Shown piece by piece: positions 17,468 through 34,989 of a stretch of DNA of 36,644 nt. Made by a program: the position numbers and the translations under genes. Positions within the stretch are counted from its first letter, which is position 1. Every line of letters starts with the position of its first letter. Under the pieces are notes generated by a model. It was not told the origin of the DNA. It saw nothing but the letters and a program-made list of their open reading frames with translations, and made no database searches. This DNA comes from an uncultured bacterium. GTDB lineage: Bacteria > Zixibacteria > MSB-5A5 > JAABVY01 > JAHJOQ01. The stretch lies in assembly GCA_965369655.1 (NCBI GenBank), contig CBDUQR010000030.1, forward strand, positions 1 through 36,644, in the 5' to 3' direction.

Positions 17468-17827
17468 GTGTTTGAGACATACTTCCCGATTGTTTTTCTG
17501 CTGTTCGTATCCATCGCTGCAGGCGGGGGGCTGTATCTCGTCTCAAAATTCCTCGGCAGGAAAAGCCCAGAGTCAAAATTCATGGACACGCCATACGAAT
17601 GCGGGATCGAGCCGGTCGGCACCACGAGGGAACGATTCCCGGTTAAGTTCTATCTGATTGCGATCTTATTCATCGTATTCGATATCGAAGTCGTCTTCAT
17701 GTACCCATGGGCGGTAGTGTATGACAGGCTTGCATTGTTCGGATTCATCGAGATGCTGGTGTTTATCGGCGTTCTCCTTATCGGTTATGTGTACATCCTG
17801 CGCAGCGGAGCATTGAAGTGGGATTAG
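17468..17827 (+). CDS. nuoA: NADH-quinone oxidoreductase subunit A
   Basis: [32 protein letters not shown]. Confidence 0.97.
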
Positions 17828-18297
17828 AAGAGAAAGTTCCGGATGGCGTCCTGCTGACAAGCGTGGACAAAATGGTCAACTGGTCGAGAAAGTCGTCACT
17901 GTGGCCGCTTGGGTTTGGGCTCGCATGTTGTGCAATCGAGATGATGTCCGCGTTTGGTCCGAGGTTCGATCTGGCAAGATTCGGGATGGAGGTAATGAGG
18001 CCGTCTCCTCGCCAGGCTGATCTGATGATCGTCTCCGGCAGGGTGTCGAACAAGATGGCTCCAGTTTTGATTCGGCTGTACGAGCAGATGCCATCACCGA
18101 AGTGGGTGATCGCGATGGGCGCGTGCGCATCGACTGGCGGCGTTTTTAATAACTACGCTATTTTGCAGGGTGTGGATAAGATTCTGCCTGTGGACATCTA
18201 TGTTCCCGGCTGTCCTCCGAGACCCGAACAGTTGATAGATGGAATCGTGAAGTTGCAGGAGAAGATCGAGAAGGAATCGGTTAAGAAGACCGTCTAA
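17818..18297 (+). CDS. nuoB: NADH-quinone oxidoreductase subunit B
   Basis: [34 protein letters not shown]. Confidence 0.98.
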
Positions 18298-18341
18298 ACA
18301 GACCTGATATCGCTCTGGGTAACGAATTCGCAAGAAACGGA

Positions 18342-18851
18342 ATGCTCGAAATACACGATAAAACAGAGTCGGCTCTGAAGGAGAACTTCTCAGGCAGCAT
18401 CCTTGATATCTCACACTTCAGGGATGAGTTAACTTTTCTTATTGAGAAAGACGCGCTGAGCGCCATAGTCACTTTCCTGAAAGACTCTCCGGAATTCAGA
18501 TATGGTTTTCTTTCTGATCTGACCGCCACCGACTGGCCTGATGATGAGAAGCGTCACGAAGTTGTCTATCTGCTCTACTCTTTCGATTCACACAGTTATG
18601 TTCGCATCAAGGTCCGTTTGAGTGAAGGGGAGACGATCGCTTCGCTGACAGGTGTCTGGGATATCGCCAACTGGTTCGAACGCGAGGTTTTCGATCTGTT
18701 CGGAGTCAAGTTCGATGGTCACCCGGATATGACGAGGATTCTTACGCCGGATGAATTCGAAGGTCATCCTCTCAGGAAAGATTTCCCTCTGACATACGAG
18801 ATGCCTCAGTTCTCGCACAACCTGGATGATCCGCCGGAGGTTATCAAGTAG
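18342..18851 (+). CDS. nuoC: NADH-quinone oxidoreductase subunit C
   Basis: ANWFEREVFDLFG..F.GHP, GHPLRKDFPL. Confidence 0.97.
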   Translation: MLEIHDKTESALKENFSGSILDISHFRDELTFLIEKDALSAIVTFLKDSPEFRYGFLSDLTATDWPDDEKRHEVVYLLYSFDSHSYVRIKVRLSEGETIASLTGVWDIANWFEREVFDLFGVKFDGHPDMTRILTPDEFEGHPLRKDFPLTYEMPQFSHNLDDPPEVIK

Positions 18852-20020
18852 TGGCGACGAAGACGATGACCATCAATATAGGGCCGCAGCATCCGGCCAC
18901 TCATGGCGTACTGCGGATCAAGTTAGAACTCGACGGCGAGACGGTCATCAGCGCGTATCCGATCATCGGATATCTGCATACCGGTATCGAGAAGACTGCG
19001 GAATCGAAGTATTACAGCAAAGCCATTCCACTTACCGACCGCATGGATTATCTCGCGCCGATGTCGAACAACCTCGGCTACTGCCTCGCGGTCGAGAAGT
19101 TGCTCGATATCGAGATACCAGAGAAAGCCCAGTGGGCGAGAGTCTGTCTCACAGAATTGACTCGGCTGAATTCGCACCTCGTCTGGATCGGCACTCACGC
19201 GCTCGACATCGGGGCGATGAGTATGCTGCTCTATGCTTTCCGCGAGCGCGAGAGTATCCTCGGCATATACGAACTGGTATCGGGGCAGAGGATGATGTCA
19301 ACGTATTTCCGCATCGGTGGCCTCGCGAATGACCTGCCACCCGATTTCAACGAGAAGGTGACGGAGATTCTTGATCTTTTCCCATCGCGGATAGACGAAT
19401 ATGAAGATCTCCTGACGAACAATCCGATCTGGCGCAACAGGACGATAGGCGTAGCGAAAATATCCCCCGAAGATGCGATCAAATGCGGTTTCACCGGTCC
19501 GCTTCTCAGGGCGTGCGGAATCAAGCACGATCTCAGGAAGACGAATCCATATTCATCGTACGAGAAGTTTGATTTTGATATACCAACCGATGATGGCTGC
19601 GATGTGTTTGCCCGGTACCTTGTTAAGCTCGTCGAAATGCGGCAGAGTCTGCGGATAATTAAGCAGGCGATTGACGGTATGCCGGAAGGGGCTTACAGGG
19701 CCGACGCCCCGGGGATAGTGCTGCCGCCGAAGGAGAGAGTGTTCTCTGAAATGGAAGCGCTGATCTTCCACTTCAAGATTATTACCGAAGGTTTTCATCC
19801 GCCAGTCGGGGAAGTTTATCAGGGAATCGAATCGCCCAAGGGCGAACTCGGTTTTTATATAGTATCCGACGGTGGACCATATCCTTATCGCATGCGTGTA
19901 AGGCCGCCCTGCTTCGTGCACACAGCGGCGCTTGGCAAACTGTGCAAGGGCGGACTTGTGGCTGATGTGATAGCGGCGATAGGTTCAATCGATATTGTAC
20001 TCGGCGAGGTCGACAGATGA
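18851..20020 (+). CDS. nuoD: NADH-quinone oxidoreductase subunit D
   Basis: NIGPQHPATHGVLR, GYLHTGIEK, ESPKGELG, DIVLGEVDR. No NiFe CxxC motifs. Confidence 0.98.
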   Translation: MATKTMTINIGPQHPATHGVLRIKLELDGETVISAYPIIGYLHTGIEKTAESKYYSKAIPLTDRMDYLAPMSNNLGYCLAVEKLLDIEIPEKAQWARVCLTELTRLNSHLVWIGTHALDIGAMSMLLYAFRERESILGIYELVSGQRMMSTYFRIGGLANDLPPDFNEKVTEILDLFPSRIDEYEDLLTNNPIWRNRTIGVAKISPEDAIKCGFTGPLLRACGIKHDLRKTNPYSSYEKFDFDIPTDDGCDVFARYLVKLVEMRQSLRIIKQAIDGMPEGAYRADAPGIVLPPKERVFSEMEALIFHFKIITEGFHPPVGEVYQGIESPKGELGFYIVSDGGPYPYRMRVRPPCFVHTAALGKLCKGGLVADVIAAIGSIDIVLGEVDR

Positions 20021-20493
20021 TTCTGACCGAGCAGACTGTTGAGAAGATCAGGGCGACGCTTCCTAAATATCCGGAAAGGTTGTCATGCATTCTACCCGCG
20101 CTGACGTTTGCCTGCAAGCAGGTCGGTCATCTCAACGAGGGTGTCTATCGAGAGATTGCGGATATCCTCGATATCGATGCGGTTCGCGTAGCTGAGGCGG
20201 CATCGTTCTACACGATGTTTCCCAAGAAGCCGGTCGGGAAGTTTTTCATACAGGTTTGTCATAATATAGCATGCTCTCTTCTCGGCGCCGAATCGCTCGT
20301 CGATTACCTGCTGCAGAAACTGAACGTCGAGCTTGGCGAGATTTCTGAAGATGGTTTGTTCACTGTTGTCACGGTCGAATGTCTCGGCTCGTGTACGACG
20401 GCTCCGATGATGCAGATCAACGACAAGTTCTATGAGAATCTGACTCGCGAGAAGGTCGATCAGATCATCGAAGAACTCAGAGGGCAGGGTTAG
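20017..20493 (+). CDS. nuoE: NADH-quinone oxidoreductase subunit E
   Basis: ASFYTMF; N1a ligands in VCHNIAC and ECLGSC..AP. Confidence 0.97.
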   Translation: MILTEQTVEKIRATLPKYPERLSCILPALTFACKQVGHLNEGVYREIADILDIDAVRVAEAASFYTMFPKKPVGKFFIQVCHNIACSLLGAESLVDYLLQKLNVELGEISEDGLFTVVTVECLGSCTTAPMMQINDKFYENLTREKVDQIIEELRGQG

Positions 20494-20497
20494 TTCG

Positions 20498-21784
20498 ATG
20501 GAGTTGAAAGTCCTGTTCAAGAACATTGATAATCCGAACCAGTACAAAGTCGATACGTACGTGTCGGGCGGCGGCTACAAGGCCTGGGAGAAATCTCTTA
20601 AGGAGATGAAACCGAAAGAAATCTGCGAAATCGTCAAGGCATCCGGCCTTCGCGGGCGGGGTGGCGCAGGTTTTCCGGCTGGTGTCAAGTGGGGTTTTGT
20701 ACCGCAGGACCTTCCGAAGCCGAAGTATCTTGTATGCAATGGCGATGAATCAGAGCCGGGTACATGCAAAGATCGTGTCCTGATGGAGAACGATCCGCAC
20801 ATGGTTGTCGAAGGCATGGCTATCGCAGCCTACGCGATTGGCGCGCACCGGGCGTATATATATATACGCGGAGAATTCGTGTTCCCAGCCAACAGAATGC
20901 GTGCCGCAATCGAGGAAGCGTATGCGAAGGGCTATCTTGGCAAGAACATATTCGGCACAGGTTACGACCTCGATATGACTGTCCACACCGGTGGAGGCGC
21001 TTATATATGCGGCGAAGAGACCGCGCTGCTGAATTCGCTCGAAGGCAGACGCGGGTTGTCGCGCATACGGCCTCCGTTCCCTGCTGTCGAGGGACTCTAT
21101 GCCTGTCCGACAGTCGTAAACAATGTCGAGACGCTGGCGAATGTCCCCGCGATAATCATGAACGGCGCCGACTGGTACAAAAACATCGGCACAGAAAAAT
21201 CCACCGGTACGCGGATATTCTGCCTGTCGGGGCATGTGAAGAATCCGGGCAACTATGAACTCGAACTCGGCACGCCACTGCGCCATCTCATATATGACAT
21301 CGGTGGTGGAATCCTCGACGACAAACCGCTCAAGGCTGTCATACCGGGCGGATCATCGACTCCGGTGATGACTCCCGACAAGCTCGACACTCCGATGGAT
21401 TTTGAATCGGTCGCAGAGGCTGGTTCGATGCTCGGTTCGTGCGGCGTGATAGTCATGCACGAAGATACCTGCATGGTCTGGGCGGCGAAAGTGCTCGCAT
21501 ATTTCTATATGCACGAGTCGTGCGGAAAATGCACGCCGTGCCGCATGGGTACGCAATGGATGTACCAGATACTCGACCGAATCGAGCGGGGAGACGGCAG
21601 GGAAGGGGACATCGATCTGTTGCTGGATGTCTGCGATAATATCGAAGGGCAGACCATCTGTCCATTGGGCGATGCCGCAGCGATGCCGGTGCGGGGGTTT
21701 GTGAAAACCTTCAGGGAAGAATTTGAATATCACATCGAGCACAAGAAGTGCATGGTGGAGAATAAGTTTCCGAGTTTCATGTAA
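20498..21784 (+). CDS. nuoF: NADH-quinone oxidoreductase subunit F
   Basis: LRGRGGAGFP, NGDESEPG, AYICGEETAL; N3 ligands in ESCGKCTPCR..ICPLG. Confidence 0.98.
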   Translation: MELKVLFKNIDNPNQYKVDTYVSGGGYKAWEKSLKEMKPKEICEIVKASGLRGRGGAGFPAGVKWGFVPQDLPKPKYLVCNGDESEPGTCKDRVLMENDPHMVVEGMAIAAYAIGAHRAYIYIRGEFVFPANRMRAAIEEAYAKGYLGKNIFGTGYDLDMTVHTGGGAYICGEETALLNSLEGRRGLSRIRPPFPAVEGLYACPTVVNNVETLANVPAIIMNGADWYKNIGTEKSTGTRIFCLSGHVKNPGNYELELGTPLRHLIYDIGGGILDDKPLKAVIPGGSSTPVMTPDKLDTPMDFESVAEAGSMLGSCGVIVMHEDTCMVWAAKVLAYFYMHESCGKCTPCRMGTQWMYQILDRIERGDGREGDIDLLLDVCDNIEGQTICPLGDAAAMPVRGFVKTFREEFEYHIEHKKCMVENKFPSFM

Positions 21785-24400
21785 ATGGATGAGATCAAGC
21801 TGACCATAGACGGCAGGGAAGTGACGACGACTGCCGGCAAGACGATCCTTGATGCCGCGCTGGATAACGGCATCGATATACCGACGTTTTGCTGGCACGC
21901 GAAGTTGAAGTCTATCGGCGCATGTCGTGTCTGCTTAGTCGAAATCGAGGGCTGGCCCAAACTCCAGGTCTCATGCGCGACACAGGCTTCCGATGGAATG
22001 ATCGTCCATGTCAACAACGAGCGCGTCACCAAAGCTCGGCAAGCTGTGATTGAATTCATACTGCTGAATCATCCATTGGATTGTCCGACATGTGACAAGG
22101 GCGGCGAGTGCCCGCTTCAGAATGTCACGTTCAAATACGGCGTGGATCGCTCTCGGACTATCGAGCCGAGACAGAGATTCATTGTCGATGAAAACTCGAC
22201 ATTCGATGATCTGCCGATTGGTCCGGAAATCATCCGGAATCAGAACAGGTGCATTCATTGTTACAGGTGTACGCGTATTGTCGAGGAAATCTGTGAAGAA
22301 GATGATCTCGGCGCATTCAATCGAGGTCATGGCACCGAGATTCTTCCGCCACCCGGCCGCGAAATCAGGAATATCTACTCCGGCAATGTCGTCGAGAACT
22401 GCCCGGTCGGTGCGTTGACGAATCGCGACTGGCGATACAAGATACGTGTCTGGGACACGAAACAGAAAAAGACCATCTGCAATTTTTGCTCTGATAATTG
22501 TAACCTCACAGCATGGGTTGCTCGCGACAAGATATTCAGATGTACCTCGCGCCGGAACGATCGAATCGATGAAGGCTTCATTTGCGACATCGGGCGTTAC
22601 GGTTATCAGTACGCGCAACATCCCGACCGCCTCAAGTCCCCTATGATACGAAAGGGCGGAGAACTGGTCGACTGCACCTGGGCCGAGGCTTATGATGCGA
22701 TTGCGAAGAAGATTGTATCGGTCAGCGAGAAGCTTGGACCGCAGGGAATAGCGGCGCTTGTCGGCAAGGATAACTCGAATGAGGATTACTACATTCTCGG
22801 CAGATTCATGCGGACCGTTGTCGGCTCCAACTCGATAGATCACAGGTTGTCGCGTAAGAAAAAGCTTTCATATTTTGATGACGTGATGAAGCTTGGTATT
22901 TCTGAAAGCGATCTTTCGTTTGATGATCTGGAGAAATATGATCGGTTCGTCATAATCGGCTGTGACCTGCACACTGAGAATCCGATAACCGCACTCCGGT
23001 TGCTGAAGGCGAAAAGCTACAATTCCGCGGAAATCACTCTCCTGAATCCTGCACCGACAAGGCTCTCCCGTTCGGGCGACGAGTTGATCTACGGCATCGA
23101 TTCCGAGATCGATATACTCACAGGGCTGACGAGATACATCCTGCAAGAGCGACTGTCCGTCGCAGGCGGGGCTGCGCTCGATTATAGCGATGTCAATGCA
23201 TTCTGCAGTCACACAGCGGCATTCTCACTCGAACATGTCAGCCAGAAAAGCGGCATTGCTGCTGAGGGTCTTAAATTGCTTGCGAAGGCTATCGCAAAGA
23301 GCGAGAACACGTTGTTTATTGTCGGCTCACAGATTGCTCGTCACTATCAGCGTGATACCATATTGAAGGCGATATACAATCTCGCGCTTATCATCGGGAA
23401 TCCGAAATCCGAGCACACTCCGATACTGCTGCTCCAGCCGGGCGCAAATCGCAGAGGCTGCCGCATTTTTGGAATGGAGCCGGACAGGCTGCCGCTGAAT
23501 CGTGCGTTCAACGAAAAAGATTCTCTCCGCTCGGTCTGGAAGAAAGAAGTTCCCGATCGTGAGGGAGTTGATACTCTCGACATTCTCCGTCAGATCAATG
23601 ACAGTAAAGTCGAACTCGCATTCGTTGTCGGTGCGGATCCATTGACAATCTATCCCGACGCCGAATTTGTCTGCACATCTCTCAGCAAGCTCGACACACT
23701 TGTTGTCGCGGATCTCTATCTGACTGAGACAGCCAAAGCCGCAGACATTGTGCTTCCGATGTCGAGTTGCATGGAGACCTCCGGGAGTCTTTGCAACTGG
23801 GAAAATAGGATTCAGACATTCGAGCAGGTGATTAAACCTGTCATGGATTCAAAGCCGGCCTGGAGAATATTCGCCGATCTGGCCGCCGTGCTCGATGCCG
23901 ATTTCGGATTGGATTCAAGCGAGGCTGTCTTCGATGAGTTCAGCAAACTTATGCCTGACGGATCGGCATGCGAATTCGCCTCCATTCCGGAGGAAGGATT
24001 GAGGCTGAAAACAGGCGCGGCTCTCGACAGGTCCGCAGGCCTTCAGGCGATTGTCAGGAAAGAGCCGGAAGTCGACAGCGAACAGGGCGTATATCTTCTC
24101 AGCGGCAACGGAGATCACCACTTGGGCCGCAATCGAACGATACGATCCGACAGCCTGAATCGCTTCTTGAGTGAGCCATTCATCGGTCTCTCGGAGAAGA
24201 CAGCCGCTGATCTTGCGCTCTCCGAAGGTGATCTGGCAAAGATCGAGAACAAGTCTGGCAAGCTGATCGGTACAGTCAGGTATCTGACGGGTCTCAGGGA
24301 TGACGTCGTCTGGATTCCGGACAACTTCCCGGGGATGTCGGCGAATGTGTTGAGAAGCCGCAAGTACGATATCGACAAGGTAACGGTTGTGAAGGTTTGA
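21785..24400 (+). CDS. nuoG: NADH-quinone oxidoreductase subunit G (long form with N7 motif)
   Basis: GACRVCLVE, NHPLDCPTCDKGGEC, RCIHCYRC..CPVGAL, CNFCSDNC..ICDIGR; molybdopterin-oxidoreductase-like C-terminus. Confidence 0.96.
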   Translation: MDEIKLTIDGREVTTTAGKTILDAALDNGIDIPTFCWHAKLKSIGACRVCLVEIEGWPKLQVSCATQASDGMIVHVNNERVTKARQAVIEFILLNHPLDCPTCDKGGECPLQNVTFKYGVDRSRTIEPRQRFIVDENSTFDDLPIGPEIIRNQNRCIHCYRCTRIVEEICEEDDLGAFNRGHGTEILPPPGREIRNIYSGNVVENCPVGALTNRDWRYKIRVWDTKQKKTICNFCSDNCNLTAWVARDKIFRCTSRRNDRIDEGFICDIGRYGYQYAQHPDRLKSPMIRKGGELVDCTWAEAYDAIAKKIVSVSEKLGPQGIAALVGKDNSNEDYYILGRFMRTVVGSNSIDHRLSRKKKLSYFDDVMKLGISESDLSFDDLEKYDRFVIIGCDLHTENPITALRLLKAKSYNSAEITLLNPAPTRLSRSGDELIYGIDSEIDILTGLTRYILQERLSVAGGAALDYSDVNAFCSHTAAFSLEHVSQKSGIAAEGLKLLAKAIAKSENTLFIVGSQIARHYQRDTILKAIYNLALIIGNPKSEHTPILLLQPGANRRGCRIFGMEPDRLPLNRAFNEKDSLRSVWKKEVPDREGVDTLDILRQINDSKVELAFVVGADPLTIYPDAEFVCTSLSKLDTLVVADLYLTETAKAADIVLPMSSCMETSGSLCNWENRIQTFEQVIKPVMDSKPAWRIFADLAAVLDADFGLDSSEAVFDEFSKLMPDGSACEFASIPEEGLRLKTGAALDRSAGLQAIVRKEPEVDSEQGVYLLSGNGDHHLGRNRTIRSDSLNRFLSEPFIGLSEKTAADLALSEGDLAKIENKSGKLIGTVRYLTGLRDDVVWIPDNFPGMSANVLRSRKYDIDKVTVVKV

Positions 24401-24401
24401 G

Positions 24402-25385
24402 ATGGACTGGGTAGCAATAGTCATAATAGCCGTCAAAGTCGTCGTGGTCTTTGCCGTACTTCTGACAGGCTGCGCATGGATGACATGGCTCGAACGCAAG
24501 CTTGTCGCTCGGATACAGACCAGGCTCGGTCCGATGAATGCTGGCTATCAGGGACTTCTCCAGCCGATCGCGGATATGATCAAGTTGTTGCTCAAAGATG
24601 ACATCTCTCCGAAGCATGTCGACAAAATGATCTATGCGCTCGCTCCGTTGGCGGCGTTCATCCCCGCCACTCTTTCGATTGCTGTCGTTCCGTTCGGGGA
24701 CAACATCGAGTTGTTCGGCAGGAATATCGATCTCGTCATATCGAATCTGAACATCGGAATACTCTATGTACTGGCTGTGACTTCAATAGGTGTGTATGCG
24801 ATTGTGATGGCGGGATGGTCGTCGAATTCCAAATACTCACTCCTCGGAGGTATCCGGTCTGCGGCGCAGATGATCTCATACGAGATCGGGTTGGGCCTCG
24901 CGATTGTTGCGGTTGTGTTGATAACGGGAACAGTGAATCTGGTTGAGATCGTCAATCAGCAGAGTTCGATCCTCCAGTGGAATTTCTTCGCGAACCCTGT
25001 TGCATTCCTGATCTACTTCATCTGTGCTGTCGCCGAGACAAACCGGAATCCGTTCGATCTTCCGGAGGCCGAGAGCGAGCTTGTCGCGGGGTATTTCACG
25101 GAGTATTCATCGATGAAGTTCGGGATGTTCTTCGTTGGCGAGTATGCGAATATGATAACGGTCGGCGCTATCGCGACCACGCTTTTCTTTGGCGGATGGC
25201 AGGGACCGTTCCTGCCGCCGGTCGTATGGTTTGTCATCAAGGTGGCGGCGTTCATGGTCATTTACATTTGGTCAAGGGGAACACTTCCGCGATTCCGTTA
25301 TGATCAACTGATGAATTTTGGATGGAAAGTGATACTCCCGGTGGCGATCCTGAATGTTCTCGTAACGGCGTTCTTTAAGATGTAG
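24402..25385 (+). CDS. nuoH: NADH-quinone oxidoreductase subunit H
   Basis: ERK..IQ.RLGP, LLQPIAD..KL, ETNRNPFDLPEAESELV.G, PRFRYDQLM. Confidence 0.98.
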   Translation: MDWVAIVIIAVKVVVVFAVLLTGCAWMTWLERKLVARIQTRLGPMNAGYQGLLQPIADMIKLLLKDDISPKHVDKMIYALAPLAAFIPATLSIAVVPFGDNIELFGRNIDLVISNLNIGILYVLAVTSIGVYAIVMAGWSSNSKYSLLGGIRSAAQMISYEIGLGLAIVAVVLITGTVNLVEIVNQQSSILQWNFFANPVAFLIYFICAVAETNRNPFDLPEAESELVAGYFTEYSSMKFGMFFVGEYANMITVGAIATTLFFGGWQGPFLPPVVWFVIKVAAFMVIYIWSRGTLPRFRYDQLMNFGWKVILPVAILNVLVTAFFKM

Positions 25386-25879
25386 TGTTGAATAAGATGA
25401 TTGAGTTTATCAAAAGATACTTTTTTGCGATACCGATAGGTTTCTTCACGACGCTGAAGAATATGCTGCGCAAGCCTGTCACTTTCCAGTATCCGAAGGA
25501 AAAAGTCCCGATGTATCCCCGGTATCGAGGACTGCATTTCCTCGAACGTTACGATGACGGCTCCGAACGCTGCGTCTGCTGCGGGCTTTGCGCGGCGGCA
25601 TGCCCGGCTGACGCGATCTTCATGGTGCCGGAGGAGACCGAGAAGGGCGAACGGAAGGCGACAGCGTACGAGATTAACATGCTCAGGTGCATCTTCTGCG
25701 GCTTCTGCGAAGAAGCCTGCCCCGAGGAGGCGATATTCCTCGGTATGGAGTATGAGTTTTCAGATGACGACAGAAGTAAGTTCATATATACTAAGGACGA
25801 TCTGCTTGTGAAGTGGCCGCGAACGAAGCCGTCTGCGGTCAATTTCATCAGGAAGAAACGCAGATCGTTTATGGAATAG
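25385..25879 (+). CDS. nuoI: NADH-quinone oxidoreductase subunit I (start may be ATG 25397)
   Basis: CVCCGLCAAACP and CIFCGFCEEACP; VTFQYP. Confidence 0.97.
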   Translation: MLNKMIEFIKRYFFAIPIGFFTTLKNMLRKPVTFQYPKEKVPMYPRYRGLHFLERYDDGSERCVCCGLCAAACPADAIFMVPEETEKGERKATAYEINMLRCIFCGFCEEACPEEAIFLGMEYEFSDDDRSKFIYTKDDLLVKWPRTKPSAVNFIRKKRRSFME

Positions 25880-25888
25880 GATCGCTCG

Positions 25889-26389
25889 TTGGAACTGCTC
25901 ATTTTCGCTCTCGCCGCATTCACCTCGGTTGCGAGTTGTATTCTGGTTATATTCCAGAAGGATCCGGTCAGGGCAGCGCTTTTTCTGGTAATGGCGTTCT
26001 TCTCACAGGCGATCCTGTTTGTGCTGCTCAGCGGGTTATTTATAGCTGCGCTTCAAATAATCATTTACGCAGGCGCGATCATGATACTGTTTCTGTTTAT
26101 CATCATGCTTCTGAATTTACGTCGAGATGAATTCGGCAGGGATCAGCACCCGTTCCAGCGAATCGTGGCATTTGTATTCGCAGGTATTCTTGCCATCGAA
26201 TTGGTTCTCGTCGCTTCGCGCGGCACGGGCGAGGCCGCGTGCGATCTTCCTCCCGATTTTGGATCGGTGGAATCGATCGGAGAGTTGCTTTTCACGAAGT
26301 ATCTCCTGCCATTCGAGGCGACTTCCATGCTGTTGATGGCTGCGATACTGGGCGCGGTGGTGCTCGCGAAAAAGAGACTGGATAGCTGA
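25889..26389 (+). CDS. nuoJ: NADH-quinone oxidoreductase subunit J
   Basis: [31 protein letters not shown]. Confidence 0.96.
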
Positions 26390-26390
26390 T

Positions 26391-26693
26391 ATGGTGCCTT
26401 TGGAATATTACCTGGTGCTCTCGGGCGTGATCTTCGCGATTGGCGTTCTTGGAGTGCTGACATCGCGGAACCTGATTGTGATCTTCATGTCGATTGAGAT
26501 AATGCTGAACGCGGGCAACCTTGCGTTCATTGCATTCTCCCGCTCGCTCGTCGATGTGTCGGGACATATATTTGTATTCATAGTGTTTGCGGTCGCGGCT
26601 GCCGAAGCGGCGGTCGGCCTGGCGATAATCATAGCGGTGTTCAGGAACAGGGAAACGATCAATGCTGATGAATTCAACATCATGCGCTGGTAG
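26391..26693 (+). CDS. nuoK: NADH-quinone oxidoreductase subunit K
   Basis: [28 protein letters not shown]. Confidence 0.97.
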
Positions 26694-26705
26694 GGGAACG
26701 ACAAG

Positions 26706-28637
26706 TTGAGCGAATTGATCTGGTTGATACCGTTCGCGCCGCTGGTCGGGTTTCTGATCAACGGCCTCGTCGGTAACAGGCTTCCGAAGCCGGTCGTGAC
26801 CGTCATTGCGTGCGGGTCGGTATTCGTTTCACTCGTGCTCTCTGTCGCCGCGTTTATCAAGCTGCTGGGCATGGATGCGGAGCATCGAGTCATCGAGCAG
26901 ATGCTTTTCTCCTGGATACCGTCCGGATCGTTCCAGGCGGATGTCTCGTTCCTGCTCGATCCGCTCTCAGCCGTGATGATTCTCGTCGTGTCGGGAGTCA
27001 GTTTCCTGATTCATGTCTACTCGATTGGCTACATGTCACACGACCCGGAATACTCTCGCTTCTTTACGTACATGAATCTTTTCGCCGGCTCGATGCTGCT
27101 GCTTGTGCTGGCAGATAATTTCCTGCTGATGTATGTCGGGTGGGAGGCAGTCGGTCTCTGTTCATATCTGCTGATCGGATTCTGGTACAAGAAGAAATCG
27201 GCTGCAGACGCTGGCAAGAAGGCTTTCATCGTTAATCGAATCGGCGATTTTGGGTTCGCGCTCGGAATGATGCTGATCTTCTGGACTTTCGGCTCGCTGA
27301 ATTTTACGGAGGTCTTCGACACGGCCGCGGATTCATATCGTATCGGCAGTTCGGTTATCACATGGATTACGCTCCTGCTGTTCATCGGAGCGATCGGCAA
27401 GTCGGCGCAGATACCGTTGTATGTCTGGCTGCCGGACGCGATGGAAGGTCCCACTCCGGTATCCGCGCTCATCCATGCTGCGACGATGGTAACTGCGGGC
27501 GTATACATGGTCGCGCGCTGCAACGTGCTGTTCGTACTTGCGCCGACATCTCTGCTGGTTGTTGCGGTCGTCGGTGTGGTGACTGCGATTTTCGCCGCGA
27601 CTATGGGTCTCGCGCAGAATGACATCAAGAGGGTTCTGGCATACTCTACGATTTCACAGCTCGGGTACATGTTCCTCGCGTGCGGCGTTGCGGCGTTTTC
27701 GGCGGGCATCTTTCATCTGATGACACACGCGTTTTTCAAGGCGTTGCTGTTCCTCGGCGCCGGTTCTGTTATCCATGCTATGTCTGATGAACAGGACATG
27801 CGGAATATGGGCGGTCTCAGATCGAAGATCAAAGTGACATACTGGACTATGTTTTTTGCGACGTTCGCCATCTGCGGCATTCCGGGATTTTCGGGCTTTT
27901 TCTCGAAGGACGAGATTCTCTGGAAGTCATTCTCCTCGCCGCACGGCAACACGCTGTTCTGGATAATCGGTGTCGCTACTGCAGGCCTGACTGCGTTCTA
28001 CATGTTCCGATTGATATTCATGACTTTCTATGGCAAGCCAAGATACAACAAGCACACGGCCGAGCATTTGCACGAATCGCCGAAAAACATGCTGTTCGCA
28101 CTCGTGTCGCTGGCGGTTCTTTCGATAGCGGGCGGATGGATCGGCATTCCCGCGGCTCTCGGTGGCGCAAATCATTTCGAGCATTTCCTGCATCCTGTAT
28201 TCGCGCAGGGAGAATCATTGGTGCAGGGACACGCCGCGCATTATGCGCATTCGACAGAGTATCTGTTGATGGCGATCTCGGTGATTCTCGTGCTGGCGTC
28301 AATTTACTTTGCATATCTGTGTTATGTGAGACGTCCGGAACTTGCCACGAATCTGAAGAAGCGCATATCCGGTCTGCACAAGATTATATACAACAAGTAT
28401 TACGTGGATGAAATCTACGCCGCGTTGATTGTCAAACCTGTGGTGAACATCTCGCTCTTTCTCTGGAAAGTGTTCGATGTTGCGATTATCGACGGCATCG
28501 TGAACGGGCTGGCATCGACGGTAAAATCGTTCTCGAATTCGGGACGACTCATTCAGACCGGATACCTGCGAAACTATGCGCTGATGTTCGTGGGTGGAGC
28601 GATTGTCATCCTGGCGTATTTCATAGCGATGAGGTAG
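26706..28637 (+). CDS. nuoL: NADH-quinone oxidoreductase subunit L
   Basis: GWEAVGLCSYLLIGF, GKSAQIPL.VWLPDAMEGPTPVSALIHAATMV, HAFFKALLF. Confidence 0.98.
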   Translation: MSELIWLIPFAPLVGFLINGLVGNRLPKPVVTVIACGSVFVSLVLSVAAFIKLLGMDAEHRVIEQMLFSWIPSGSFQADVSFLLDPLSAVMILVVSGVSFLIHVYSIGYMSHDPEYSRFFTYMNLFAGSMLLLVLADNFLLMYVGWEAVGLCSYLLIGFWYKKKSAADAGKKAFIVNRIGDFGFALGMMLIFWTFGSLNFTEVFDTAADSYRIGSSVITWITLLLFIGAIGKSAQIPLYVWLPDAMEGPTPVSALIHAATMVTAGVYMVARCNVLFVLAPTSLLVVAVVGVVTAIFAATMGLAQNDIKRVLAYSTISQLGYMFLACGVAAFSAGIFHLMTHAFFKALLFLGAGSVIHAMSDEQDMRNMGGLRSKIKVTYWTMFFATFAICGIPGFSGFFSKDEILWKSFSSPHGNTLFWIIGVATAGLTAFYMFRLIFMTFYGKPRYNKHTAEHLHESPKNMLFALVSLAVLSIAGGWIGIPAALGGANHFEHFLHPVFAQGESLVQGHAAHYAHSTEYLLMAISVILVLASIYFAYLCYVRRPELATNLKKRISGLHKIIYNKYYVDEIYAALIVKPVVNISLFLWKVFDVAIIDGIVNGLASTVKSFSNSGRLIQTGYLRNYALMFVGGAIVILAYFIAMR

Positions 28638-28638
28638 G

Positions 28639-30204
28639 ATGGACCAGTATATACTGAGCATAGTCACGGCGATTCCGATGCTAGGAATCCTTCTGCTGTT
28701 GCTTGTCAGCAAGAAGGCAGAGTCGACGCTCAAGGTGATAGCCATCGCGTCGAGTTTCATCGCGTTCATCGCATCGCTCTATCTCTATTTCATGTTCGAC
28801 TCATCGACCGATGCGATGCAGTTCGCTGTCAAGATACCCTGGATAGCGTCGTTCGGCATAAGCTATAACATCGGGATCGACGGCCTGAGTTTGTGGCTTT
28901 TCATTCTGACGACATTCCTTTCGTGGATTGCGATCTGGTCGTCATGGAGTGCCATCAAGGATCGTCTCAAGGGCTTCCTGATCTCGCTGCTGCTGCTCGA
29001 AGTAGGCATGCTCGGCGTATTCATGTCGCTCGACCTGTTCCTGTTCTACGTTTTCTGGGAGTTGATGCTGATCCCGATGTATTTCCTGATAGGAATCTGG
29101 GGCGGTTCAAACAAAATCTACGCCACGATCAAATTCGTTCTCTTCACGCTCGTCGGGTCGCTTCTGATGCTAGTTGCGATCATCGTGCTTTACGTGATGC
29201 ATTACTACGCCGCCGGTTTCTACTCATTCGACCTGATGCAGATAGGGACGCTTGAGATCGGCCCAAAAGCGCAGTTGTGGCTCTTCGCCGCATTCGCGCT
29301 GGCGTTTGCCATTAAGGTTCCGATGTTCCCGTTCCACACATGGCTTCCCGACGCGCACGTTGAGGCTCCAACCGCCGGAAGCGTTATCCTTGCGGGAGTA
29401 TTGCTGAAAATGGGAACTTACGGTTTTCTGAGGTTCTGCCTCCCGTTGTTCCCGGATGCGTTCGTGCACTTCATACCGGTAATATCCGTCCTGGCCATAA
29501 TTGGTATCATCTACGGCGCACTGGTCGCGATGGTCCAGAAAGACGTCAAGTCGCTGGTCGCATTCTCGTCAGTGTCTCACTTAGGCTTTGTGATGATCGG
29601 AATGGCGGCTCTCAACACGCAGGGGTTGCAGGGGTCGATCATTCAGATGATAAACCATGGGATATCAACGGGCGCGCTGTTCCTCATCGTCGGGATGATC
29701 TATGAACGGAGACACACGAGAATGATCGCCGACCTCGGCGGTATCTTCACGTCAATGCCTGTCTGGACGACTTTCTTCATCATCGTCGCGCTATCCTCGA
29801 TAGGGTTGCCGTTTACGAACGGATTCGTTGGCGAGTTCCTGATACTGCTTGGCGCTTTCAAAGCAAACATCGTTTACGCTGTCCTGGCAGCGACCGGGAT
29901 GATACTCGCTGCCGTATATATGCTCTGGATGCTGCAACGGGTTGTCTACGGCAAGATAACGCGGGAAGAGAACAGAAACCTGACAGACATCAATCTGAGA
30001 GAGAAGCTGATCCTTTTGCCGATAGTGATTCTCATCTTCTGGATCGGCATCTATCCATCGACATTCTTCAAGCCAATGGAAAAAACGATCGAGAAGTTGC
30101 TGAAGACTGTGGAGGCCGCGAAGGAGAGAGCGGAACTGCCGCTACCTGAGGGGATCGAGTTTACGGCGAGCGTTGCAGATACGGTAGACGTGGAGGGTAA
30201 TTGA
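28639..30204 (+). CDS. nuoM: NADH-quinone oxidoreductase subunit M
   Basis: FYVFWE, KVPMFPFHTWLPDAHVEAPT, LLKMG.YG, SSVSHLG. Confidence 0.98.
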   Translation: MDQYILSIVTAIPMLGILLLLLVSKKAESTLKVIAIASSFIAFIASLYLYFMFDSSTDAMQFAVKIPWIASFGISYNIGIDGLSLWLFILTTFLSWIAIWSSWSAIKDRLKGFLISLLLLEVGMLGVFMSLDLFLFYVFWELMLIPMYFLIGIWGGSNKIYATIKFVLFTLVGSLLMLVAIIVLYVMHYYAAGFYSFDLMQIGTLEIGPKAQLWLFAAFALAFAIKVPMFPFHTWLPDAHVEAPTAGSVILAGVLLKMGTYGFLRFCLPLFPDAFVHFIPVISVLAIIGIIYGALVAMVQKDVKSLVAFSSVSHLGFVMIGMAALNTQGLQGSIIQMINHGISTGALFLIVGMIYERRHTRMIADLGGIFTSMPVWTTFFIIVALSSIGLPFTNGFVGEFLILLGAFKANIVYAVLAATGMILAAVYMLWMLQRVVYGKITREENRNLTDINLREKLILLPIVILIFWIGIYPSTFFKPMEKTIEKLLKTVEAAKERAELPLPEGIEFTASVADTVDVEGN

Positions 30205-30206
30205 CA

Positions 30207-30428
30207 ATGCCTGACGTAAAGATATTCACCAAGCCCGGTTGTCCATACTGCGCTGCGGCGAGGAAAGACTTAGATGATCGAGGAGTCAGATACGAAGAAT
30301 TGGACGTCACTTCCAGCGGTGAGAATGCGAAACAGGCTCTCGGTTTTTCGAAGGGCCAGAGGCTCGTTCCCATTATCGTAACTGACGGCGAGGTGCAAGT
30401 TGGATTCAACGGAGGCTGAGGATTCTGA
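30207..30428 (+). CDS. Glutaredoxin-like probable selenoprotein with C-terminal GG-U-GF-stop (Uxx-star type); Sec codon at 30417-30419
   Basis: MPDVKIFTKPGCPYC...RLVPIIVTDGEVQVGFNGG-TGA-GGA-TTC-TGA. GGAGG RBS at 30192-30196 favours ATG 30207. SECIS-like hairpin 11 nt after the first TGA. The ORF track stops at 30419. Confidence 0.85.
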
Positions 30429-30430
30429 TC

Positions 30431-30449
30431 GCCGGGCGGTCTGTCCGGC
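30431..30449 (+). promoter_or_regulatory. Bacterial SECIS-like hairpin
   Basis: GCCGGGC-GGTCT-GTCCGGC, a 7-bp stem with one G-U. It starts 11 nt after the UGA at 30417-30419, and its apical GGUCU resembles the E. coli fdhF SECIS. Confidence 0.75.
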
Positions 30450-30463
30450 ACACGAGATAGAAT

Positions 30464-31918
30464 ATGCCGATTAACTTACCACATATAGATTATGCAGCGA
30501 TACTGCCGGAGTTGATCACTGGCGGCATGGCGCTTCTGGTTATGTTGATCACGCCGTTCATGCCGGATGAGAGACGATATTACACAGGCTATCTTGCGTG
30601 GCTCGGTATCATCGCGGCTGCGGTTGCCACATACATGGGGTTTGCAAAAGAGGTAACGACGTTCTCCGGCTTGTATGTGACCGATTTCTTCTCGACGGTG
30701 ATGAAGCTCGTTTTCCTTCTTGGATCATTTCTCGTGATTCTGCTGTCGGACAATTTCGTTCGGCTCAGGAAGCTTCCTGCGGGCGAGTACTACGCGCTGA
30801 TTCTCTTTGCCACTCTGGGCATGATGATGATGGCATCGGCGGGCGATCTGATTGTATTCTTCATAGGGCTCGAGATTATGTCTGTGGCCCTGTATGTCCT
30901 TGCGGGAATCAGGCGGGTCGATCTGAAATCTAACGAAGCATCTCTGAAGTACTTCTTCCTCGGCGCGTTCGCCACAGGATTCATCGTATTCGGCATTGCA
31001 TTCATCTATGGCGCAATAGGAACGACATCGCTGACTCACGTTTTCGATATCAGTCTCTATGTATTCGAGAACTCGGGACTGTATCTTATGATCGGTGGCG
31101 CTTTGCTTCTGATAGGACTTGCGTTCAAGATCGCGTCATTCCCGTTTCACATGTGGGTTCCCGATGTCTACGAGGGAGCGCCGACTGTAGTGACCGCGTT
31201 CATGTCATCGGGACCGAAAGCCGCGGCGATAGCTGTTCTCGCGCGAGTGTTCATCTTCGCGTTCGGCGAGCAAACGGCCATTATCGCCCCGATCTTCTGG
31301 GTTCTCTCCGTGTTGACCATGTTTGTGGGCAATCTGACCGCGATCTCGCAGTCGAACGTCAAGCGAATGCTGGCGTACTCATCGATTGCACATGCTGGCT
31401 ACATGATGATTGCGTTCGTCGCTGCGAGTGGCGAGGCAGTATCCGCCGTCGCCTATTATGTTCTCTGCTACACGGTGATGAATATCGGCGCATTCGCAGT
31501 GTTGATTATTGTCGAGAGCAAAACAGACGGCGACAATCAATTGTCAAGCTTCACCGGGCTGGGCCGACGGCATCCGATTCTCGGGGCTGCAATGCTTCTC
31601 TTCCTGATTTCGCTGGCAGGTATCCCTCCGACGGCCGGGTTCTTCGCGAAGTTCTATCTGTTCAAAGCAGCGATACTCAAGGGATATATCCTGCTGGCGG
31701 TGATCGCGGTGATCAACAGTCTTATCTCAGTCTACTACTATCTACGAGTCGTCGTTGTGATGTTTATGATAGATACCGAGACCGAATTCCGTCCTGTGAC
31801 ATATCCATCGGCGCTCTACGTAGCTCTCGTGATTGCAGTGATGGCGGTATTGGCGCTCGGAGTGTTCCCGTCGTATTTCTTCCCGTTCGATCAGCCGATG
31901 CTTGTTGCGTTCGGTTGA
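30464..31918 (+). CDS. nuoN: NADH-quinone oxidoreductase subunit N
   Basis: EASLKYF, FKIASFPFHMWVPDVYEGAPT, KRMLAYSSIAHAGY, SLAGIPPTAGFFAKF. Confidence 0.98.
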   Translation: MPINLPHIDYAAILPELITGGMALLVMLITPFMPDERRYYTGYLAWLGIIAAAVATYMGFAKEVTTFSGLYVTDFFSTVMKLVFLLGSFLVILLSDNFVRLRKLPAGEYYALILFATLGMMMMASAGDLIVFFIGLEIMSVALYVLAGIRRVDLKSNEASLKYFFLGAFATGFIVFGIAFIYGAIGTTSLTHVFDISLYVFENSGLYLMIGGALLLIGLAFKIASFPFHMWVPDVYEGAPTVVTAFMSSGPKAAAIAVLARVFIFAFGEQTAIIAPIFWVLSVLTMFVGNLTAISQSNVKRMLAYSSIAHAGYMMIAFVAASGEAVSAVAYYVLCYTVMNIGAFAVLIIVESKTDGDNQLSSFTGLGRRHPILGAAMLLFLISLAGIPPTAGFFAKFYLFKAAILKGYILLAVIAVINSLISVYYYLRVVVVMFMIDTETEFRPVTYPSALYVALVIAVMAVLALGVFPSYFFPFDQPMLVAFG

Positions 31919-32288: not shown

Positions 32289-34946
32289 TTAAACACTGTA
32301 TGTGCAGGGTGGCGGGCCACCGGAGAAGATATAATTAATCAGGTAGACAACATCGTCGATGTCGACATTATCGCTGCAGTTGCAGTCACCAGCTTCGATG
32401 GGATTCGGTGCAGGGCCTCCTCCGAAGATGTAGTTCACGAGAAACACCACGTCGTCGATGTCGATCCCGCCGGAGCCGTCAGCATCACCCGATTGCATTA
32501 CTATATCGTATTGCGGCATGAAATCGACTCGCAGAGAATCGTGGGGACAATTTTCTGGCACTCCTCCATAAGTCGAAAAATACTCGTTCATCCGACAACC
32601 CTCGTCCCGGCTGATCCCGATCAGCGAGGTGAAAAAGAGGTCGAGAACTCCAACATCGAGATACTGGAATGAAATCCTGTGATCTGACGTCAGTATGACT
32701 TCAAATGTGATCATTGAGTCCGAATCGTGGCCGAAGTTGCCGATCTGGTGATACTCCACTATCATGGAATCCTGACCGGGCGTCGTGTAGTAATAGATTG
32801 AGCCGTGCCCAGCGCCGACAGTGTCAATCGTCAGATCGTTCCAGAAGGGAAGAAGCAGTGCGTCGATCCCGGGCGACGGCAGGTCGATGTACGCGAAATA
32901 GCCGCCGATGTTGACTTCGTCCGATGTGAATGATATTCCGCCATTGACGCCGACGTGGAGGGATGTGAAGACGTCATTGTAGAAGTTGAACGGGAATCCG
33001 ATCGGAATCTCAATCGATGTTCCATCGTCGAGCGCACCGCCCGGTCTGCTTTCGTTGTGGAACTCGTCGAGTTCGATCATCGTACCGGTTTGAGAGATTT
33101 CTATCCACTCGAAATCCGGCCCGTCAGGGTCGTCGCTGTCAATCGTCACGTAGTCCGTGTCGTTGCACAGGACCGTGAAAAAGACAGGTATGTCGATCTC
33201 ATACCATGTGCCGTAGTCGACACTGATAATCCCTTTGTAGTTGTATGTTGTGTCATCGAGAGGGGCGCTATCCAGTGTCACAAACAGCCCGACATAACCG
33301 CCCGGATCGATAGTACCGGTGTCGGGATCAACATCGATCCATCCGGGATCAGCGAGACCTTCGAGTGTGTCGTTTATGCTGATGCTGAAACTGGCGGAAG
33401 CGGAACTATTGGTATTTGTCAAAACAATCAGATCGGATGCGACCTGACCACCGACCGCTGAGAGATCAAGGTACGTTGGATCGGCGACAAGTCCGGGTGG
33501 CGGAAGATACTGATACGCCGATTCGAGGTTCGGGCGGGGACCTATCCATTCCGATGGATTCGGCTGCTGTGAACCGGTGTTCTCCAACAGCGAGACTACG
33601 ACTTCCGGCACCATCGGCAAACCGTACTGAGCCTTATATATGCCTTGCAGACAAATCACCGCACCCGCGACGATCGGCGCCGCGCTCGATGTGCCGCCGA
33701 ATGTCTCGGTGTAGTACTGGTTCTGATCGCCCCCGCCACTGAAAAGGCCGCCGTATCCGGTAGTCACTACGTTTTTGCCCCAGCCCTGAAGGTTGACGCG
33801 CGAACCGTAGTTCGAGAAATAGAGCCTCGATCTGTCCAGACCGTATTCGCCACCCGGTGGAGCACCCGCGCCAACGAGTATCGCGCGCGAGTCTCGGAAA
33901 TCTCTGTTGAATTTCTCCTCGTAGATTGGATCATCAAGGTCCTCGTAGCCGTTGCCCGCTGCTGCTACAACGATTATCCCTTTCGCTGTCGCCATCTGAA
34001 TGGCATCGAAATTGGCCTGGAAATACTCCATCGGGACGTATCCCATCTGGTCCGGACGGGACTGGAAATCGTATCGCGGTCCGGGCGTGTGCAGTTCTAT
34101 GATTATAACATCGCCGGCTTGGAGGTTTGCGGCGGAAATGTCGACGGCCGCAGCGACTCCTATGCCTCCGGTCGAAGCCATGTCCACGTGGGCGTCATAG
34201 GCTATGCCGGTGATCCCGTATTCGTTGGAATCTCCGACTATCTCGCCCAGCACTGCGGTGCCATGATTGATCCAGTCTTGCCACGGGATCAGGTCACCGG
34301 CAAGCAGCCCGCCGATATTGTCTCCGAAATCCTCATGGTCGAGATTCCAGTTGCCCTCGATATCGACTACATCGATTCCCGCTCCCGTTCCGCCCGGAAT
34401 GGTCCACGCGAAGTCCGCCGCAATGCCCTCGGGAACGCCGTAGAGATAGCCCTGGCTTCCAGAAAAATCCGGCGTTGGAGGTGGAATGTCCTGTGCAGGT
34501 TCTGCCTGGGGTTCAAGATAGACAGTCTTTACCTGGGGCAGACGACTCAGCATGTTCAGAAGTCGTTCGGCCTCGGAGTGATCCGAGACATCGATCTGGA
34601 AATATGAATTCTTGTCCACCGTGCGATGGGGTGCGATGGCGCTCAATTGCCTGTACTCCTCGTCAAGCTCCGTTTCACTCCGCACAAAGAGCGGCTTGAG
34701 GGTGTATTCACCTATTGCAGCCTTGAGTCCATCCGTGACGATTCCGGAGAGGCTGACGAGCGAACCGTTCCGCAATCGCATCTTAAGCGGCTCATCGAAT
34801 TTGACGACAAGTCTCTCAATCTTCATTCCAAGTGAGACCGATATGCGGTCGTCTGGCTTATTTGGCGCTGCGTACGCCGGAACGCTTAGAGCGAGAGCCA
34901 GCAACGCGAGCAGACAGACTATTTCTGTGCAAAGATTTCTACTCAT
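32289..34946 (-). CDS. Secreted subtilisin-family (S8) serine protease with C-terminal dockerin
   Basis: Signal peptide ending PAYA. Catalytic D (VVDIEG), H (NHGTAVLG), oxyanion N (AAGNG) and S (FGGTSSAAP). Ig/nidogen-like region, then GDADGSGGIDIDDVVFL..GDCNCSDNVDIDDVVYL. ATG 34946 preferred because the ORF-track TTG at 34985 sits at the predicted TSS. Confidence 0.9.
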   Translation of the reverse strand: MSRNLCTEIVCLLALLALALSVPAYAAPNKPDDRISVSLGMKIERLVVKFDEPLKMRLRNGSLVSLSGIVTDGLKAAIGEYTLKPLFVRSETELDEEYRQLSAIAPHRTVDKNSYFQIDVSDHSEAERLLNMLSRLPQVKTVYLEPQAEPAQDIPPPTPDFSGSQGYLYGVPEGIAADFAWTIPGGTGAGIDVVDIEGNWNLDHEDFGDNIGGLLAGDLIPWQDWINHGTAVLGEIVGDSNEYGITGIAYDAHVDMASTGGIGVAAAVDISAANLQAGDVIIIELHTPGPRYDFQSRPDQMGYVPMEYFQANFDAIQMATAKGIIVVAAAGNGYEDLDDPIYEEKFNRDFRDSRAILVGAGAPPGGEYGLDRSRLYFSNYGSRVNLQGWGKNVVTTGYGGLFSGGGDQNQYYTETFGGTSSAAPIVAGAVICLQGIYKAQYGLPMVPEVVVSLLENTGSQQPNPSEWIGPRPNLESAYQYLPPPGLVADPTYLDLSAVGGQVASDLIVLTNTNSSASASFSISINDTLEGLADPGWIDVDPDTGTIDPGGYVGLFVTLDSAPLDDTTYNYKGIISVDYGTWYEIDIPVFFTVLCNDTDYVTIDSDDPDGPDFEWIEISQTGTMIELDEFHNESRPGGALDDGTSIEIPIGFPFNFYNDVFTSLHVGVNGGISFTSDEVNIGGYFAYIDLPSPGIDALLLPFWNDLTIDTVGAGHGSIYYYTTPGQDSMIVEYHQIGNFGHDSDSMITFEVILTSDHRISFQYLDVGVLDLFFTSLIGISRDEGCRMNEYFSTYGGVPENCPHDSLRVDFMPQYDIVMQSGDADGSGGIDIDDVVFLVNYIFGGGPAPNPIEAGDCNCSDNVDIDDVVYLINYIFSGGPPPCTYSV

Positions 34947-34989
34947 AATACTGTAGTCGGCAGACAGCCGGCAGCACCCAATCAATTGA

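Follow-up and report, generated by a model that had tools for sequence, protein, structure and literature searches.

A small gene set between nuoM and nuoN in a bacterial complex I operon very probably encodes a genuine selenoprotein of the glutaredoxin-like Uxx-star family, with a SECIS in its 3' UTR, as predicted from sequence comparison. It lies in the window, i.e. the whole analysed stretch of 36,644 nucleotides of contig CBDUQR010000030.1 (assembly GCA_965369655.1), which is of zixibacterial origin. The explanation that best covers the findings overall, and a likely one, is a selenocysteine (Sec)-decoded Uxx-star protein with an untranslated SECIS, in the service of complex I. Taken by itself, the tie of its function to complex I is a tentative proposal, and physical binding as a complex I subunit is unlikely. 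Proteins of this type are already described in NCBIfam and in Table 1 of a 2026 review (PMC13188914), which lists UXX-star families and cites Haft & Tolstoy 2025, mSystems; the window gene is a further member. The conserved complex I context is the single element that may be new. A full-text literature search, which did not extend to Haft & Tolstoy 2025, returned no report placing Uxx-star between nuoM and nuoN.

The reading frame that opens with the ATG at 30207 on the + strand encodes MPDVKIFTKPGCPYC...VGFNGG as far as position 30416, where the codons GGA GGC (30411-30416) are followed by TGA GGA TTC TGA. The preliminary description of an ORF with a CPYC motif and this ending was thus correct to the base. 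The first TGA (30417..30419) is read as Sec at residue 71 on the strength of the profile match, the homologous loci and the Cys-containing homologues, and the second TGA (30426..30428) is the true stop. The gene accordingly spans 30207..30428 (+), with 73 codons plus the stop, and its product of 73 residues ends GF-N-G-G-U-G-F (GGUGF after translation of TGA as U). The CPYC redox motif (30240..30251, +) supplies Cys12 and Cys15; C12, P13 and C15 are invariant across the alignment of relatives (A4). The start codon matches that of the homologues, and GGAGG at 30192..30196 (+), 10 nt 5' of the ATG, is the likely ribosome-binding site. An operon-embedded member from another genome (locus L049, genome G059) carries CPYS in place of CPYC, a monothiol active site, and retains the Sec tail.

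The proposed membership in the glutaredoxin-like Sec-x-x-stop family was borne out by the NCBIfam model NF041212 (Uxx-star). With the TGA read through, the protein scores 106.8 bits against a cut-off of 66 and spans the full profile, positions 1-70 of 70, which also supports the 73-residue product with a CxxC and the ending GG-U-G-F that had been suggested earlier. The truncated form of 70 residues reaches 98.9 bits and ends at profile position 67 of 70. This is the single match above the cut-off in the whole genome. Related NCBIfam models are NF041114, NF041211, NF047338 and NF045501. For NF041114 (UXX-star family 1, an equivalog model with a cut-off of 72 bits), the window protein scores 74.6 bits and 8 of 10 operon-embedded relatives pass (scores of 68.9-85.8 bits, with one under the listing threshold), and of 10 members taken from other contexts, 6 reach 76-87 bits or just under. 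Because the scores obtained in quite different contexts fall into the same range (69-87 bits), this model does not define the operon-embedded clade. An AlphaFold2 model built from 20 relatives (pLDDT 88.6) has a beta-alpha-beta-alpha-beta-beta glutaredoxin fold. Its best PDB matches are cGrx2 (4tr0), the A. fulgidus Grx (3ic4), BC3987 (3zij) and NrdH; among the Foldseek matches listed, all 33 with E <= 0.001 are glutaredoxins, NrdH or BC3987.

The surrounding operon encodes a 14-subunit NADH:quinone oxidoreductase (17468..31918, +; 14 ORFs assigned by NCBIfam scan) in the order nuoA-B-C-D-E-F-G-H-I-J-K-L-M-[Uxx-star]-N. The flanking genes are nuoM (28639..30204, +; TIGR01972, 621.8 bits) and nuoN (30464..31918, +; TIGR01770, 452.8 bits). 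The Uxx-star gene is the sole insertion in this operon. Its ATG follows the TGA stop of nuoM (30202-30204) after 2 nt, and 35 nt separate its end from nuoN. Two neighbouring genes are recorded in passing. NuoG (21785-24400, +) is long, at 871 aa, with a formate-dehydrogenase-alpha-like molybdopterin domain (TIGR01591, 313.7 bits, below the cut-off). A subtilase (Peptidase_S8) of 898 aa, secreted-looking and matching no NCBIfam family, is encoded at 32289-34985 (-); its C-terminal repeats GDxDGSGxIDIDDVVxLxNYIF look dockerin-like by eye.

The same arrangement recurs among relatives. A survey of the class covered 61 genomes, 37 of which have a Uxx-star match over the cut-off; 30 of these loci, the window locus included, were fetched. 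A further 80 loci came from a scan of GTDB species genomes, and after the removal of 9 identical ORFs, 101 unique loci remained. All 62 unique loci with a tail of the G-G-[GS]-U-G-[FY] type are flanked by nuoM and/or nuoN, 59 of them on both sides and the other 3 being cut by a contig end. They span many families of the class. The closest named relative of the window protein, at 80% identity, comes from a 'Candidatus Zixiibacteriota' MAG. Among the 41 operon-embedded records with a title, 22 are labelled Zixibacteria, 11 Ignavibacteria or a lower rank, 1 FCB group, 1 Calditrichota and 6 'bacterium'; the 'Ignavibacteria' labels are doubtful, since 5 of these 11 loci are identical to loci of the window's own GTDB class. 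A tree of 90 member proteins, based on 70 columns, has little resolution: the unconstrained version implies 4 changes of operon label, and a tree that groups the 62 operon-embedded members has a higher likelihood and is not rejected (p-AU 0.705).

The 28 remaining Uxx-star loci, with tails of the U-[GSAR]-[IV] type, come from Anaerolineae, Thermoleophilia, Dehalococcoidia and others, and their neighbours differ. Four Anaerolineae MAGs (L060, L062, L112, L076) share the conserved order selB - DUF498 (PF04430) - Uxx-star. The Pfam family DUF498 is presumably that of the mitochondrial complex I assembly factor NDUFAF3, and no weight is placed on this. In four Thermoleophilia MAGs (L100, L107, L125, L071), the gene lies directly 3' of a heavy-metal P-type ATPase (HMA + E1-E2 ATPase), and in three further loci (L053, L070, L081) an AhpC/TSA-type redoxin is encoded downstream of it.

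What the nuo context signifies is the question on which the most serious alternative turns. The selenoprotein may be genuine and its place in the operon a matter of co-expression only, the product being a free cytosolic thiol/selenol oxidoreductase or a metal/metalloid ligand. This possibility falls just short of an even chance. It agrees with the variety of neighbours in other clades (P-type metal ATPases, AhpC/TSA redoxins or selB-DUF498) and with the proposal in PMC13188914, made in that review's account of the UXX-star family, that the Sec may bind metals or unknown substrates. It is further supported by operons that manage without the gene. Five class genomes lacking Uxx-star were examined, and as one nuoM locus stopped at a contig end, four were informative: in each of these sister-family genomes, nuoN starts no more than 93 nt after an orthologous nuoM (57-62% identity), with no detectable Uxx-star between them. 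A second nuo operon of the window genome (contig 1, L131:6030-10960, - strand), in which nuoL, nuoM and nuoN abut, also has no Uxx-star gene; no NuoF-family gene was found on contig 1, and the operon appears to be of the 11-subunit type. Complex I as such therefore does not need Uxx-star, which is absent from 4 of 4 sister nuoM-nuoN junctions and from the second operon. Against co-expression as the sole reason stands the fixed position of the gene: in 62 of 62 loci, from many families, it sits next to genes for membrane subunits, and in the window 2 nt and 35 nt separate it from them. This would be unusual for a gene without a functional tie to the operon. Within the window genome, Uxx-star occurs only in the NuoEFG-containing operon.

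The reading of the first TGA as Sec is supported by the tail of the gene in relatives. The earlier expectation was that aligned homologues would show either TGA or Cys at this position, followed by two codons and a stop. The order TGA, two sense codons and stop was found in 30 of the 30 fetched class loci and in 90 of the 101 unique loci (62 operon-embedded and 28 others). As for the 7 class loci that were left unfetched, 6 have one TGA inside the match, and in 1 the match ends before that position. Among the 62 operon-embedded loci, the first codon after the TGA is GGA (33), GGC (12), GGT (7), GGG (5), GAT (3) or GAC (2), and the second is TTC (29), TTT (25), TAC (4), TAT (2), ATC (1) or ATT (1); the stop is TAA in 36, TGA in 18 and TAG in 8. 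The use of all four Gly codons and both Phe codons ahead of an invariant stop position implies purifying selection on the protein and hence translation past the TGA. In five loci from Blastocatellia, Acidobacteriota and Eremiobacterota-type MAGs (L108, L113, L117, L109, L123), the TGA is followed by three to four codons (U-T-V-H...); this tail is a longer variant than Uxx-stop.

Homologues with Cys complete the picture. Among 1.84 billion representatives, a profile search found 7545 matches at E <= 0.001, and 15 of the top 150 distant homologues were fetched. Four of them have Cys-x-x as their ending at the aligned position (P0072 with GFGGSCSF, P0052, P0112 and P0039), so that the classical Sec/Cys pairing is present. 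The other 11 comprise three with Cys followed by zero, three or four residues, six with another residue and two truncated forms.

The machinery for Sec insertion is complete. In the window genome (99.5% complete, 100 contigs), all four components for which a search had been suggested were found: a tRNA-Sec (74 bits against a gathering score of 47; anticodon tca according to ARAGORN), selA (512 bits), selB (329 bits) and selD (402 bits), the last three over their curated cut-offs. The genes selC, selA and selB are clustered on contig 17, and selD is on contig 13. Across the class, selA exceeds the cut-off in 57 of 61 sampled genomes; the remaining 4, of 52-100% completeness, have selA fragments at contig ends or nothing. 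The selD sequence (G000 contig 13, L017:1399-3654, - strand) is the C-terminal half of an ORF of 751 aa which starts with a domain of the class-V aminotransferase type (NifS/cysteine desulfurase-like) as its N-terminal half, and this ORF looks like a NifS-SelD fusion.

The candidate SECIS is the hairpin GCCGGGC-GGTCT-GTCCGGC (30431..30449, +), with 7 bp, one of them a G-U pair, and the apical loop GGUCU. As had been described, it starts 11 nt past the first TGA and 2 nt past the second, within the 35-nt spacer before nuoN. Among the folds of the local RNA it has the minimum free energy (-13.7 kcal/mol). This energy alone is unexceptional for a GC-rich stretch (z = -1.25; 23 of 200 shuffled sequences are as stable), and the same holds for the hairpin in a context of 66 nt (z = -0.79; 44 of 200 shuffles as stable). 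The case for a hairpin beyond chance is made by comparison with relatives and not by folding energy.

In nearly all of the 30 class loci, RNAfold places a hairpin right after the true stop; the stem sequences vary, and the apical loops are GGUC, AGUU, GGUU and similar. A criterion formulated post hoc, after the loci had been viewed, asks for a stem of 6 bp or more that starts 5-17 nt past the UGA and closes a loop of 3-7 nt, with [GA]GU in this loop or in its closing pair. It picks out 25 of the 30 true sites; of the 3418 remaining TGA triplets in these loci, counted over both strands, it picks out 77 (2.3%). The 5 sites that it misses keep a hairpin at the same place, one with 5 bp, one with a mismatch and three with loops lacking the trinucleotide. 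Applied to the wider set, it selects 49 of the 62 loci embedded in nuo operons and 12 of the 28 Uxx-star loci found elsewhere. Within a subset of 14 loci that share an identical 4-nt-loop geometry, 6 of the 7 stem pairs have changed on both sides (27 cells); the figure of 92.9% paired positions for this subset is inflated, because the 14 loci were picked for having a stem. When the 48 nt that follow the UGA were aligned with MAFFT, the result was structurally inconsistent and was left out of the pair counts. A covariance model of 20 positions gives 20-26 bits for its 14 training sites, 10.6-16.5 bits for other true sites and 17.4 bits for an unrelated match; it provides no independent support, since true sites outside the training set are mixed with unrelated matches. 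An Rfam scan of 29500-31000 at E <= 10 yielded only noise and no family matching the hairpin. An intrinsic terminator was considered and rejected, as there is no U-run and no terminator-like site, and nuoN begins 15 nt downstream. The earlier proposal of a SECIS just past the true stop is thus supported, as all the sequence checks suggested with it turned out favourably: the hairpin is conserved (25 of 30 against 2.3% of controls), with the qualification that its folding energy on its own is not significant.

It is very improbable that the first TGA is an ordinary stop, which would make the product a 70-residue glutaredoxin, leave GGA TTC TGA untranslated and reduce the hairpin to an intercistronic element acting in stability, processing or nuoN coupling. 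Public gene calls do end at the first TGA, a length of exactly 70 aa is recorded for 18 of 20 database homologues, and the unexceptional hairpin energy would suit an element of this kind. Termination at UGA is also expected to compete partly with Sec insertion. However, an ordinary stop does not explain why two sense codons with synonymous variation and a stop follow the TGA in so large a share of the unique loci, why the NF041212 profile covers three extra positions, or why Cys-x-x homologues and a complete Sec machinery exist. Insertion of one of the standard amino acids at the TGA (Trp, Cys or Gly), whether through near-cognate decoding or under a reassigned code, can practically be discounted: some bacteria do use TGA as a sense codon (NCBI tables 4 and 25), but here both nuoM and the Uxx-star gene itself end in TGA, so that the codon is not reassigned genome-wide, tRNA-Sec, selA, selB and selD are all in the genome, a SelB-type hairpin stands at an fdhF-like spacing, and the aligned residue in non-Sec homologues is Cys.

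Decoding of the Uxx-star gene as a selenoprotein would proceed as follows. SelB with Sec-tRNA(Sec) would bind the GGUCU-loop hairpin, 11 nt past the UGA, at the mRNA entrance of the ribosome. The UGA at 30417 would be decoded as Sec, Gly and Phe would be added, and the second TGA would terminate translation, as it is only 2 nt from the hairpin. The SECIS would thus lie in the untranslated spacer ahead of nuoN. By analogy with glutaredoxins and with the C-terminal Sec tails of enzymes such as thioredoxin reductase, the CPYC dithiol may cooperate with the selenolate carried by the glycine-rich tail: Sec71 would be the attacking group on an oxidised substrate, and Cys12 and Cys15 would resolve the selenenylsulfide. 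In glutaredoxins, the loop past the last strand lines the glutathione site beside the CxxC, which places residue 71 plausibly within reach of Cys12.

Co-production with an NADH-oxidising complex I, as judged from gene position, suggests that Uxx-star may serve this enzyme in redox maintenance, as an assembly factor or as an accessory subunit. A more specific version, which is rather improbable, is that zixibacterial complex I has gained a fifteenth, selenium-containing component, which would dock to the complex and, through its Sec-Gly tail and CPYC, keep thiols reduced or quench reactive species. If so, the Sec-Gly tail would be the protein's own selenium counterpart to the Cys-Gly end of glutathione, and respiratory complex I would for the first time have a selenoprotein tied to it.

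That a whole class has kept a Sec-bearing redox module among the membrane-arm genes of a complex I operon offers a concrete, testable lead to the function of the Uxx-star family and to the redox maintenance of bacterial complex I. The gene is also a clean natural example, as predicted, of a bacterial SECIS acting from untranslated RNA just beyond the stop codon. The public copies found of this clade are 70-residue 'glutaredoxin' entries (e.g. 'glutaredoxin 3') cut at the Sec codon. As they are stored three residues short, counts of the zixibacterial selenoproteome miss Uxx-star.

Compared with known proteins, the window product shares with the NF041212 family a length of about 70 aa, the glutaredoxin fold, the CPYC motif and a Sec three residues from the C-terminus; none of the Uxx-star family models is an equivalog specific to it. 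The tail of the operon-embedded clade, G-G-[GS]-U-G-[FY], differs from the U-[GSAR]-[IV] of other Uxx-star clades. The fold and the CxxC position are also common to short dithiol glutaredoxins and NrdH/YruB-like redoxins (4tr0, 7c10, 3ic4, 3zij, 1h75), with TM-scores normalised to the query of 0.76-0.81 against short glutaredoxin/NrdH structures and 55.7 bits for the YruB model TIGR02196, under its cut-off; these redoxins are, however, without the C-terminal Sec/Cys tail of Uxx-star. The known Sec-glutaredoxins in Table 1 of PMC13188914 have their Sec within a UxxC active site and not at the C-terminus.

The hairpin resembles the SECIS of E. coli fdhF, for which the spacer of 11 nt and the GGUCU apex given in the preliminary description agree with K-12 DNA (UGA, 11 nt, GGUUGCA-GGUC-UGCACC): the spacing and a GGUC loop followed by U are common to both. 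The fdhF element is itself part of the coding sequence and contains a bulged U, whereas the window hairpin has a continuous stem with one G-U pair and lies past the true stop. According to the relevant passage of PMC10778597, a bacterial SECIS can work from the 3' UTR if the Sec stands close to the C-terminus, recombinant thioredoxin reductase being an example; the work described there is that of Arner et al. 1999, who engineered a 3'-UTR SECIS for the mammalian enzyme (Gly-Cys-Sec-Gly-stop) in E. coli. With this precedent and a Sec so near the C-terminus, an untranslated SECIS is to be expected and is unsurprising here. Judged by that account, the construct and Uxx-star share a near-C-terminal Sec, a stop between the UGA and the hairpin, an untranslated SECIS and a flexible, glycine-rich tail. 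They differ in that the thioredoxin reductase construct is artificial and encodes a large flavoenzyme, whereas Uxx-star is natural and would find the redox partner of its Sec in the CPYC of its own domain.
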